Part shown: in pieces, positions 21,001-24,000 of the stretch
Layout of the letters: the number at the start of each line of letters is the position of its first letter
How positions within the stretch are numbered: the stretch's first letter is position 1
Origin: Bacilli bacterium
GTDB taxonomy: Bacteria > Bacillota_I > Bacilli_A > RF39 > UBA660
Assembly: GCA_016297695.1 (NCBI GenBank)
Contig: JAEDGC010000004.1
Span: 8,074 to 72,073 of the forward strand
Direction: 5' to 3'
Length of the DNA stretch: 64,000 nucleotides
Made by a program: the position numbers

Positions 21001-24000
21001 AATACAGTAGAAGCAATAGAAGTTCCAAATAAAAAGTTTGCAATCGGGGTAAAATGGCATCCTGAATTGATGCAAGGTGAAAATTGTATGGATGAAATTT
21101 TTAAAAAATTTATAGAAAGCTGTGAAACAAATTAACAATGAAATAATTATTTTGTTTTATAAATAAAAATAGTAAAGGGGACAGTTCTATGTCTCCTTGT
21201 TTTGTTAATAAATAAGTGATAAAATATGTTAATGAAAAACGTCTTTGATTATTTAATAAATTTGTGGCCTAGATTAGTTTCCTATGCGTATCCACAAAAA
21301 TTAGACCTATTTTATTAATGTTTGGACACGAATTTATTGATTATAGACACAAAATTTCTGGTTGATATGAGTCATAATAAGGAGGTCAATATGTTCAAAT
21401 TAGAGTCAAAATATAAACCAAGTGGAGACCAACCACAGGCTATTGAAAAGTTAGTTGAAGGAATTAAATCTGGTAAAAAAGACCAGGTTTTACTGGGAGC
21501 AACTGGAACAGGAAAGACTTTTACAATTGCAAATGTAATTGAGCAAGTTAATAGACCAACTCTTGTTTTAGCTCATAATAAAACACTAGCTGGGCAACTT
21601 TATTCTGAATTAAAAGAGTTATTTCCTAATAATCATGTCGAATACTTTGTATCTTATTATAGCAACACCCCAAAAACCCCTTTATTTAGTGCCTTTTAGT
21701 GTTATTTAATCATAGTAAAATACCTAAATAACACTAGATAAAACCAGAAGTTAGAAAATAAATTTGTGGCCGGTATTCGTGGTCATTCGTGTCCGCCTAA
21801 GAAGAACCTGTTCAAAATAATGAACTATCTGAATAATGTATATATTTTACTTTATTGAAAATGTATGCTAAAATAGCAATCAATTTAAGGGGGATTGTAT
21901 GCAAAAATCAAAATATACAATGCATGGTATAAACAAAGAAACATATAGATTATTATTCGATGAAAAAGAGCAAAATAAGATGGAATGCTCTAATGAAATT
22001 TTTACTATTGAAATGAGTTCATTATATGATAGAAAGCCGTATTATATATTCTATAACTTTTTAAAAAAGATAATTGATATGTATTTTTATGAAGTTAATT
22101 ATTTTAATTTACATAAGAAGATGTTTGGTAAAGGATACATATTTAAAAATAGTGATGTAGAGTTTTGGTTTGATTACTTAGAAAATCATTTAAAGAAAAT
22201 ATTAAGAAATGAAGATACTTATGTTAAGAAAGAAATGATTTTTGACTTAAAACATAATTTAAGATATTGTTCGTGTTTTTATACAAATATGATTATATCA
22301 GCTAATATAGAAAATTCTTTTTTTGTTACAGGTTTAATTAAATATGATGATGGTGATAGTCATTTACATAGTTTTGTTGAACATAAAGATTATGTTATTG
22401 ATTATACAAAAAATCTGATTATGCCTAAGAAAAAATATATTGAACTTCTAAAAATTAAAGAATTACAAAGGGTTGATTCTAAAAGTGTAATAAATATGTA
22501 TAATATTTTAGTAGAAAATAGAATATTAAATACTGCAAGATTTATGGCGACATTTGGAAATGAAATAATAAATGACTTAGATAGAAATCCTCAATTAATT
22601 AAAAGAAATACAGATAAGCCAGATTTTAGTTGTTTATTTTACTAAAATAACAAATAATATTAGCAAGGAAGTTATGATGACTTCCTTGTTTTATTGTAAA
22701 ATAAGTGTTAAAATAGGTTATTGAAAAACATCTGGTTTTATTCAGTTTTATTTAGTGTTATTTAATAAATTTGTGGCCGACATGTATCCACCAGAAATTA
22801 GACCTATTTTATTAATGTTTGGACACAAATTTTCTGGTTGATATGAGTCATAATAAGGAGGTCAATATGTTCAAATTAGAGTCAAAATATAAACCAAGTG
22901 GAGACCAACCACAGGCTATTGAAAAGTTAGTTGAAGGAATTAAATCTGGTAAAAAAGACCAGGTTTTACTGGGAGCAACTGGAACAGGAAAGACTTTTAC
23001 AATTGCAAATGTAATTGAGCAAGTTAATAGACCAACTCTTGTTTTAGCTCATAATAAAACACTAGCTGGGCAACTTTATTCTGAATTAAAAGAGTTATTT
23101 CCTAATAATCATGTCGAATACTTTGTATCTTATTATGATTATTATCAACCAGAAGCATATGTTCCCTCAAGTGATACTTATATAGAAAAAGATTCCTCTA
23201 TTAATGATGAAATAGACGAATTAAGGCATGCAGCAACATCTGCCTTAATTAATAATCGTGATACGATAGTTGTAGCATCTGTATCTTGTATTTATAATAT
23301 TGGTGAAAAAGAAGAATATGTTAATAAAATGCTTACTTTAGAAAAAGGAATGAAAATTAAAAGAAATGATATAATTAATAAACTTGTTGATATGGCATAT
23401 GAAAGAAATGATATTTATTTTCATCGTGGTACATTTAGAGTTCATGGAGATATTATTGATATAGTACCTGCTGGCGAAAAAAGTCAAGCAATAAGAGTTG
23501 ATTTATTTGATGATGAAATAGATAGAATATCAATCTTTGATCCAGTAACTGGAGCATTGATAAAAGAAAAGAAAACCATATCGATATTTCCAGCAAGTCA
23601 TTTTGTTACAAGTGATAAAAAGATGCAAGAAGCATTAAAAAGAATAAAATCTGAACTTGAAGAAAGAATAAAATACTTTGAAGATAATAATAAACTACTA
23701 GAAGCTCAAAGAATAAAAGAACGTACTAATTATGATATGGAAATGCTTAAAGAAACAGGTTTTTGTAGTGGAGTAGAAAATTATTCATCCCATTTAGCTT
23801 TGAGAGATTCAGGTTCTACACCTAATTGTTTAATAGATTTTTTTGATAAAGATTTCTTATTAATTATTGATGAATCACATGTTACTGTTCCACAAATAAG
23901 AGGAATGTACAATGGTGACAGAGCAAGAAAACAAACTTTAGTAGATTATGGATTTAGATTACCATCAGCTTTAGATAATCGACCTTTAAAATTTGAAGAA

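Follow-up and report, generated by a model that had tools for sequence, protein, structure and literature searches.

Integrative elements that insert in the 5' part of a gene and restore it are known from SXT in prfC and from the dusA islands (PMC8409611), and recombinase-less cis-mobilizable elements (CIMEs), bounded by attL and attR attachment sites and prone to tandem accretion, have been defined as decay products of ICEs (integrative and conjugative elements) or IMEs (integrative and mobilizable elements) (PMC5704250). Here we describe a locus in a 64,000-nt stretch of the genome of a Bacilli bacterium (assembly GCA_016297695.1, contig JAEDGC010000004.1, positions 8,074 to 72,073; the whole stretch is called the window below), in which uvrB is preceded by a second copy of its own upstream region and first 90 codons, with a single gene, ORF248 (open reading frame, ORF), lying between the two copies. 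We are highly confident that this arrangement arose by insertion of a cassette that belongs to a recurrent family, and that neither an accident at this locus nor an artefact explains it. The explanation we favour is that the cassette entered through homologous recombination and that no dedicated recombinase took part, and we give this step, as we do the explanation as a whole, slightly less than an even chance.

Two copies of the uvrB 5' end around one gene

The upstream copy (A) and the downstream copy (B) lie 1476 nt apart and are identical over 306 nt, from uvrB position -36 to codon 90, a repeat (R) made up of 36 nt of leader with the ribosome-binding site (RBS) and 270 nt of coding sequence, and reaching 315 nt if one mismatch (21346/22822) is allowed. 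An earlier note on this DNA, made from the sequence alone, had read the 270 coding nucleotides and the RBS region as identical, and pairwise comparison confirms this. Upstream of the repeat the note had described copies that stay alignable, with indels, back to hairpin repeats; the two regions, U_A and U_B, do align as far as these terminator-like hairpins, sharing 88.9% of the bases in 198 aligned columns and differing by three indels (about 17, 13 and 21 nt). The 21 nt that it had listed as extra in copy A (gaatttattgattatagacac) are real, and a conspecific genome with an intact uvrB (L090, below) has them upstream of that gene as well; the segment is thus an allele of the uvrB leader and not an insertion specific to copy A.

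In copy A, uvrB ends exactly at ...GTATCTTATTAT (VSYY, codon 90) and then reads AGCAACACCCCAAAAACCCC; a 16-mer in the C-rich stretch beyond the junction, ACACCCCAAAAACCCC, is unique within the window, which confirms both the breakpoint and the unique continuation that had been reported for it. A tblastn search matches the truncated copy, uvrB', to UvrB at 98.9% over residues 1–91. A 238-nt tail, ORF248, a second promoter and leader and the full uvrB follow in that order, the last encoding 649 aa with all UvrB domains, as the note had said of copy B. The unit, put there at about 1.5 kb and without a recombinase, measures 1476 bp and contains ORF248 only, and when almost all ORFs of at least 90 aa in the window were compared with Pfam, no integrase, resolvase or transposase was hit. 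There are no terminal inverted repeats at 21661/23136 and the duplication consists of 306 nt of gene sequence, so that the unit does not have the form of a transposon, an insertion sequence or a miniature inverted-repeat transposable element.

Two independently assembled k-mer contigs from run SRR12268561 bear on the assembly. One (L001) equals window 21631–22824 exactly and spans the junction of uvrB' and tail with 30 nt of uvrB sequence; the other (L087) carries the glutamine amidotransferase (GATase) gene that precedes copy A and ends 192 nt past its stop, which corresponds, by coordinate arithmetic only, to about window 21327, inside a 32-mer common to both upstream regions. Both fit the structure, and reads thus contain the junction of uvrB' with the tail, while short reads cannot place both copies on one molecule in every cell.

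Table 1. Features of the uvrB cassette, followed by those of the array upstream of it, in window coordinates. Promoter and terminator calls here, and LexA-box calls in the text, are consensus matches, partly by eye.
Feature	Position	Strand	Remarks
U_A, upstream region of copy A	21136..21390	+	hairpin, promoter-like module, leader, RBS
Terminator-like hairpin after GATase gene, in U_A	21175-21198		
Promoter-like module in U_A	21195-21226		TTGTTT-17-TGaTAAAAT
Box motifs in long U_A leader	21260-21269; 21324-21333	+; -	
uvrB' (copy A), codons 1-90	21391..21660	+	truncated after VSYY; frame runs on through 12 element-encoded codons to stop at 21699
Left copy of perfect 306-nt direct repeat R	21355..21660	+	
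Tail, left end of element	21661..21898	+	homologous to tails in L082, L092, L046, L055, L109
Weak hairpin, then T-rich run, in tail	~21664-21703		
Three direct box repeats in tail	21762-21794		ATTTGTGGCC / ATTCGTGGTC / ATTCGTGTCC
Extended -10 promoter before ORF248	21846-21874		TTTACT-17-TGcTAAAAT
ORF248, cargo gene	21899..22645	+	248 aa
U_B, element-borne upstream region of functional uvrB	22646..22866	+	
Terminator hairpin in U_B	22662-22690		
Promoter-like module in U_B	22684-22715		TTGTTT-17-TGtTAAAAT
Boxes in U_B	22769-22778; 22821-22830	+; -	
U_B leader segment complementary to uvrB codons 88-96	22832-22857		
RBS in U_B	22855-22861		AAGGAGG
Right copy of 306-nt repeat R	22831..23136	+	end (codons 84-90, ~23116-23136) is the shared breakpoint region
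Full-length uvrB	22867..24816	+	649 aa, all UvrB domains
Probable older stacked cassettes	18958..21135	+	inferred from modules and remnants
Hairpin and promoter module, then ORF207			ORF207 at 19046-19669
Hairpin, promoter module, tail	19670-19900		
ORF46, then winged-helix gene remnant (frameshifted)	19901-20290		
Tail-like boxes	20287-20448		
GATase/peptidase C26 gene	20449-21135		228 aa

The same breakpoint in other lineages

The window has a G+C content of 21–30% and encodes SpoIIR and a class A penicillin-binding protein. Among the matches listed, its nearest named genomes are uncultured Erysipelotrichaceae/Bacilli metagenome-assembled genomes (MAGs) with 70–72% identical UvrB; closer relatives, with UvrB at 99% (P0016, P0017), 92% and about 90%, are present in a large protein collection, and no exact-protein match was found for the window UvrB or for the 102-aa uvrB' product. 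All loci compared here come from metagenome assemblies and were screened, once fetched, with the UvrB N-terminus. The empty-site comparison proposed in the earlier note could be made with two relatives of 99% UvrB identity, and in both uvrB is undivided. One (L091) shares the genes of window 14.6–18 kb at 94.5% and joins the equivalent of window 19931 straight to 22807, and so has neither the GATase gene nor uvrB', tail or ORF248. The other (L090) is collinear with window 22768–34818 at 96.9%, has an unrelated gene upstream, and carries a mosaic leader, U_B-like in its distal part and U_A-like, with the 21-nt segment, in its proximal part. The structure is therefore polymorphic within the species.

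Beyond the species the same architecture recurs with other cargo. A sister species (UvrB 90%) is represented by 20 contigs that carry its UvrB protein, and uvrB' was seen in the four (L092–L095) of five loci read (L092–L096) that reach far enough upstream. Here uvrB codons 1–90, ending in VSYY, are followed by a homologous tail (AGAAATACCTTAAAAAAC..., then AAATTTGTTGCC...ATTCGTGTCC), a gene for a major facilitator superfamily (MFS) transporter (precomputed Pfam) and the full uvrB; uvrB', annotated as a 105-aa 'ResIII/DEAD' ORF, is 85.6% identical to the resident copy and, given a 75-nt internal deletion in L095, is an old, decaying pseudogene. In two Clostridia MAGs, L046 (Acutalibacteraceae) and L055, whose UvrB is 57–58% identical to that of the window, uvrB' codons 1–90 and a tail precede a 289-aa gene that by eye is leucine-rich repeat (LRR)-like, and then uvrB. 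Two metagenome contigs show uvrB' stopping at the same point with a hairpin or tail next (L109, with a cargo gene that by eye resembles S-adenosylmethionine synthetase, and L112), and in L082 (UvrB 71%) an ORF248 homologue lies directly 5' of uvrB, with only the last 20 nt of uvrB' (17 of 19 compared bases match) to the left of its tail. Across L092–L095, L046, L055, L109, L112 and the phage-like contig L206 discussed below, the truncation point is the same; the breakpoint stays constant to within 2 nt, and six tails (window, L082, L092, L046, L055 and L109) align over about 150 nt, with a hairpin and T-rich run right after the junction and the motif TAAATTTGTGRCY-N-ATTCGTG as common blocks.

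The comparison also indicates which 5' end is the native one. Copy A in L092, L109 and L112 is preceded by a hairpin and the module TTGTTT-17-TGnTAAAAT, and this module stands directly upstream of the uninterrupted uvrB of L005. Copy B in L092, L046, L109 and L112 has a long, box-bearing leader of element type, and copy A a promoter of native type. These observations support the view that the native 5' end is stranded and that its replacement, promoter included, comes with the element, as the earlier note had proposed; in inserting within the 5' coding region and bringing a promoter and N-terminal codons, it is like a 5'-restoring element. Since the native promoter and leader are replaced on insertion, carriage may change the regulation of nucleotide excision repair. 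In L046, a TTGACA-17-TATAAT promoter 5' of the stranded uvrB' (8330–8540) is followed by GAACAAATGTTT / AGAACAAATGTTTG, which by eye resembles a Gram-positive LexA (Cheo) box; the functional uvrB of L046 has no LexA-like box, and insertion may therefore uncouple uvrB from SOS control.

The cassettes themselves have moved horizontally. L046 and L055 share the element interior (tail, cargo and leader) at 92.6% nucleotide identity, against 66.7% for uvrB beyond codon 90 and 68.6% for the UvrB protein, and the homology of the two loci starts at uvrB'. Likewise, ORF248 is 94.1% identical at the nucleotide level between the window and L082, without gaps and with 14 synonymous and 27 nonsynonymous codon differences, as against 72–75% for uvrB, whose codons 1–90 alone differ by 38 synonymous and 12 nonsynonymous changes. 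Since the elements are far more alike between genera than the uvrB genes that hold them, it is the small element itself that moved, to the same nucleotide each time, and cassettes have passed between genera, always breaking uvrB at codon 90, while their cargo varies. Genes of the ORF248 family also occur in unrelated contexts, with only a promoter of their own (L083, L086, L088, L089).

The sequence motif that ties these cassettes together is a box, AAATTTGTGRCY-N(2-6)-ATTCGTGT, found ahead of every cassette gene and of the rebuilt uvrB in several Firmicutes lineages (window 19832–22830; L041 at 367, 2195 and 3621; L046 at 8903 and 9875; L055 at 1762 and 2734; L133 at 431). It forms direct repeats 10–13 nt apart just 3' of a -10-like A/T block, at times with inverted copies nearer uvrB. 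Nine such direct repeats (ATTYGTGKYC) lie in 19.8–22.8 kb, against 0.74 expected in the whole window. The box may serve as an operator, as an initial transcribed element, or as a site where a protein binds for recombination. It matched none of the known consensus sequences: readings of the box and of the target site as a DnaA box, a dif/Xer site or a LexA box, judged by eye, did not fit. Exact searches of IMG/VR for the tail, promoter-module and box patterns gave no match, save one contig for the box.

As for the cargo, ORF248 matches no Pfam, NCBIfam or PADLOC family. Residues C126, H157 and D168 are invariant or nearly so, and a search of the PDB for folds resembling its AlphaFold2 model (mean confidence, pLDDT, 79.7) gave nothing significant, the only, weak, matches being SseI, AvrPphB, LapG and vasohibin at E >= 0.2; ORF248 may be a papain-like or transglutaminase-like hydrolase, and it is not a recombinase. 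The other small elements hold a single cargo gene each, none of it recombinase-like, though not all were scanned with Pfam. In L041, a Clostridium MAG with three box modules upstream of uvrB, the box-preceded genes at 520–3192 encode matches to PADLOC PDC-S05 (E 8.5e-134) and PDC-S23 (E 3.4e-102; a Doc/Fic-type domain, RhuM/Doc type) and an HD-domain protein, and with these phage-defence candidates in view some cassettes at the uvrB site may carry defence genes.

Homologous recombination or a recombinase in trans

In the explanation we favour, window 21661–23136 is a 1476-bp single-cargo cassette inserted immediately after uvrB codon 90 and consisting, from left to right, of a hairpin and T-rich run, a promoter/operator with ATTYGTGKYC boxes, ORF248, a terminator, promoter and long leader, and an RBS with codons 1–90. 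The resident uvrB is thus rebuilt and expressed from element-borne signals, its original 5' end persisting as a dead fragment, copy A. Because uvrB' on the left and uvrB on the right would act as portable homology arms for any uvrB, the host recombination machinery could knock the cassette in by double crossover, and the same repeats would permit its loss, tandem stacking, exchange of cargo and gene conversion between the copies. The event in the window would be recent, with a donor from the same species or a close relative, U_A being the leader allele of the recipient and U_B that of the donor; such a donor would account for 306 identical bases beside diverged upstream regions. The suggestion of the earlier note that perfect repeats point to recency or to gene conversion gains support here, as copies A and B evolve in concert across genomes.

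The copies in L046 and L055 bear on this route. Over codons 12–88, copies A and B are host-specific and 90–100% identical to each other per 30-nt window, whereas over codons 1–11 (30 nt only) A matches A at 80% and B matches B at 73% between the two loci, with A against B at 50–57%, and both A copies carry TAA at codon 89. The element-type sequence common to the two loci thus sits at the edges, in the leader, codons 1–11 and the TAA at codon 89, and host-like codons 12–88 with element-type edges are the minimal-donor-tract pattern expected of a double crossover in diverged arms; homologous recombination is therefore slightly favoured over a recombinase supplied in trans. In all four lineages that have both copies, most of the 90 codons of copy B are of host type. 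The leader of L090, a mosaic of U_A and U_B, would likewise slightly favour homologous recombination, and both the 19.7-kb module of the window and the join in L091 look as if leader and tail homologies had recombined to produce them.

Several considerations weigh against this explanation. An identical breakpoint with a conserved 150-nt end across classes of Firmicutes is a classic signature of site-specific recombination, and the box repeats near both ends could be binding sites for a recombinase or an accessory protein. Recombination over arms that are 65–75% identical would need patches of 8–30 nt and should be very rare, and the founding event that created the first junction of uvrB' and tail is left unexplained. 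The window covers 64 kb of the genome, and a trans-acting recombinase may be encoded elsewhere. Finally, a pattern like the mosaic could also result if the copies evolved in concert once a site-specific integration had taken place.

It is possible, if on the doubtful side, that the cassette is instead a non-autonomous site-specific element, similar to a CIME or to a pseudo-SCC cassette (SCC, staphylococcal cassette chromosome), on which a tyrosine or serine recombinase supplied in trans by an ICE, a phage or the host joins a core in uvrB codons 84–91 to an identical core of the circular cassette. The boxes would then be arm-type or accessory sites, the regenerated site would allow cassettes to stack, and later gene conversion would equalize the uvrB 5' copies. 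A breakpoint that stays within 2 nt, with homologous ends, in very distant hosts is what such a mechanism predicts, and the transfer of the small form itself between genera, the tandem arrays of the window, the three box modules of L041 (several cassettes or a multi-gene cargo) and the excess of direct box repeats near the junction all fit it; precedents exist in elements that restore a 5' end (PMC8409611) and in CIMEs that keep their att sites without a recombinase (PMC5704250). However, a freshly arrived foreign element should leave a copy B only about 75% identical, which is true of none of the four lineages with both copies, and the boxes also stand directly before internal cargo genes (5 nt from the RBS in L041), which suits a promoter or operator better than an arm site. 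Nor has a recombinase been seen in the small elements or, by Pfam over almost all ORFs of at least 90 aa, in the window; upstream of uvrB, motif heuristics applied to all loci found only unrelated, tRNA-linked integrases in high-GC proviruses, and the analysis turned up no parent element whose recombinase would match.

A possible partner is L206, which holds the only truncated uvrB' in IMG/VR. Here a phage-like contig of 38.9 kb (IMG/VR 2882654883_000019) opens with 385 nt made up of the box motif and uvrB' codons 9–91, and uvrB' ends at the same point (...TATTACGA, then AACCTG...). Pfam identifies Rep, ParAB, Dcm and MazF on the contig, and terminase, portal, prohead protease and tape measure genes were read by size, position or sequence; ParA/ParB together with Rep suggest a phage-plasmid. 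No integrase motif was found over its full length (motif heuristics only), and its start may be a repeat-induced assembly break, so that it is weak evidence for an autonomous partner element. Near the putative tail genes of the same contig (L294, positions 16600–17886) an ORF (...RHIKSVHIKERCIQRVLCDHAL...) resembles a reverse transcriptase by eye and may belong to a diversity-generating retroelement.

A one-off local rearrangement without any mobile element, whether unequal crossing-over that left a tandem duplication or an illegitimate recombination event at microhomology, is highly improbable. The topology is like that of a 1476-nt tandem unit, and the junction, TTTGTATCTTATTAT, resembles sequence upstream of the L082 tail, but the preceding unit has the GATase gene and not ORF248, and only 306 of 1476 nt are repeated in it; the same junction and tail recur, with other cargo, in at least five other lineages, distant ones among them, and the likeness to L082 is better explained by what is left of uvrB' there. 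An origin of the junction de novo at the L082 microhomology, by homology-facilitated illegitimate recombination, was dropped on finding the same junction in the sister species and in Clostridia. An assembly artefact, whether through collapse or expansion of a repeat or through a chimera of two strains that occur together, has hardly any chance of being the explanation: the perfect 306-nt repeat exceeds typical short reads, the source appears metagenomic and Logan contigs break at the repeat edges, but an independent k-mer contig spans the junction along with 30 nt of uvrB, the same architecture was assembled independently where the copies are too diverged to collapse (L092–L096; L046, L055), and a strain chimera could alter the sequence upstream of copy A and could not remove the duplication.

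If homologous recombination is indeed the route, these elements would be recombinase-free, natural knock-in cassettes, with uvrB codons 1–90 and a promoter as a built-in arm, which host RecA alone would insert, stack, strip of one cargo for another and delete; single accessory genes, candidate phage-defence genes among them, would be moved between genera, and uvrB would be rewired off its native promoter, LexA-box-bearing in one case. We regard this wider proposal as tentative, with the balance somewhat against it.

Surroundings of the cassette and known systems

Both copies of the uvrB 5' end in the window have element-type leaders, and three more tail/promoter modules lie at 18.96–20.45 kb. 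We infer from these modules that successive cassettes were stacked upstream, in an order that is likewise reconstructed; the boundary repeats there look like remnants of earlier cassettes, and on such stacking copy A would once itself have been a copy B. Between two of the tail modules, at 19901–20290, a 46-aa ORF is followed by frameshifted winged-helix fragments (...IELIKENPKITRNELANKLNITLDSVKYN and a stop, then LKKLVDNKIIERIGPDNGGY...), and this remnant appears to be a decayed cargo gene.

A further feature of the leader is its potential to pair with the gene. The segment just upstream of and overlapping the RBS in U_B (TTCTGGTTGATATGAGTCATAATAAG) is complementary at 23 of 26 positions to uvrB codons 88–96 (23129–23154), and the insertion point falls inside the complementary codon stretch; the same segment is present in copy A (21356–21381). 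In the predicted fold of 22800–23170, minimum free energy and centroid structures alike, the leader with its Shine-Dalgarno sequence pairs with codons 85–96 (z = -3.6), and this predicted pairing may regulate how uvrB is translated. The complementarity is also found in L090, L091, L092–L095, L082 and, by eye, L041; among the loci compared, it is absent from the cassette-free relatives L005 and L002 and from L046 and L055.

Elsewhere in the window, a tRNA-Cys(GCA) at 10283–10356, the only Rfam family found in 9.5–25 kb, precedes about 9 kb of same-strand genes (10482–19669; about 21% GC) that run up to the cassette array. Most have no known family, the others being Zn phospholipase C-like, camelysin-like and cadherin-like, and L091 keeps the 14.6–18 kb part of this block, as does the sister species to judge from gene order. 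On the other side of uvrB, 35849–64000 looks like an ICE, with an HTH (helix-turn-helix)/sigma-70-like pair, ParA, ParB, a sortase, DUF3848, a DUF3991-Toprim primase-like protein, a MobA/VirD2 relaxase and DUF3801, as well as ORFs of 1231 and 2444 aa that lie outside the Pfam scan; its right end lies past the window edge and no integrase is visible within the window. Between this region (36–64 kb) and the L206 element only generic ParA similarity was found.

If this is confirmed, uvrB codon 90 would be a site, not described so far, at which accessory genes are widely docked in gut Firmicutes; full-text literature searches found no paper describing insertion into uvrB. To our knowledge, the uvrB cassettes, at about 1.5 kb with one gene and no recombinase, are the smallest gene-restoring insertions known. 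They would offer either a tractable case of gene movement without mobility enzymes or a handle on a new trans-acting recombinase with a highly conserved 20–30-bp target. For annotation, the 100-aa 'ResIII/DEAD' ORFs found upstream of uvrB would be insertion footprints, not genes.

Among known systems, the SXT/R391 ICEs in prfC and the dusA islands (e.g. IMEVchUSA3) likewise insert inside the 5' coding region. However, they are elements of 20–100 kb with a tyrosine integrase and a recombination directionality factor of their own, whereas the uvrB elements measure 1.5–1.8 kb and carry one cargo gene and no recombinase, that of the window holding ORF248 only. Those elements have att sites of short identity (17 bp in SXT), whereas the uvrB cassettes duplicate 90 codons and a leader and keep the two copies alike. 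CIMEs and the pseudo-SCC cassettes of staphylococci (at rlmH) are likewise recombinase-less and stack in tandem at the end of one conserved gene. The uvrB cassette lacks integration and transfer genes and has direct repeats on both sides, which may act as att sites. Yet the CIMEs of streptococci lie at 3' ends with short repeats and the uvrB cassette at a 5' end, and, unlike CIMEs, the minimal one-gene form is itself shared at 92.6% between genera.

Integron cassettes, too, bring variable single-gene cargo, head to tail, to one site with conserved boundaries. The window nevertheless contains no IntI-like protein and no attI/attC-type site, the uvrB cassettes carry promoters of their own, and the insertion point, unlike that of integron cassettes, lies inside a housekeeping gene, with a 270-nt duplication. 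The topology matches that of a Campbell-type insertion-duplication or a knock-in through flanking homology, as in suicide-vector integration or the exchange of islands by recombination in flanking core genes, with homology on both sides, an upstream copy that is truncated, a complete one downstream and loss through the repeats. Unlike its laboratory counterpart, the uvrB cassette is natural, heritable and widespread, and the fragment of the target gene would travel with it as a homology arm.

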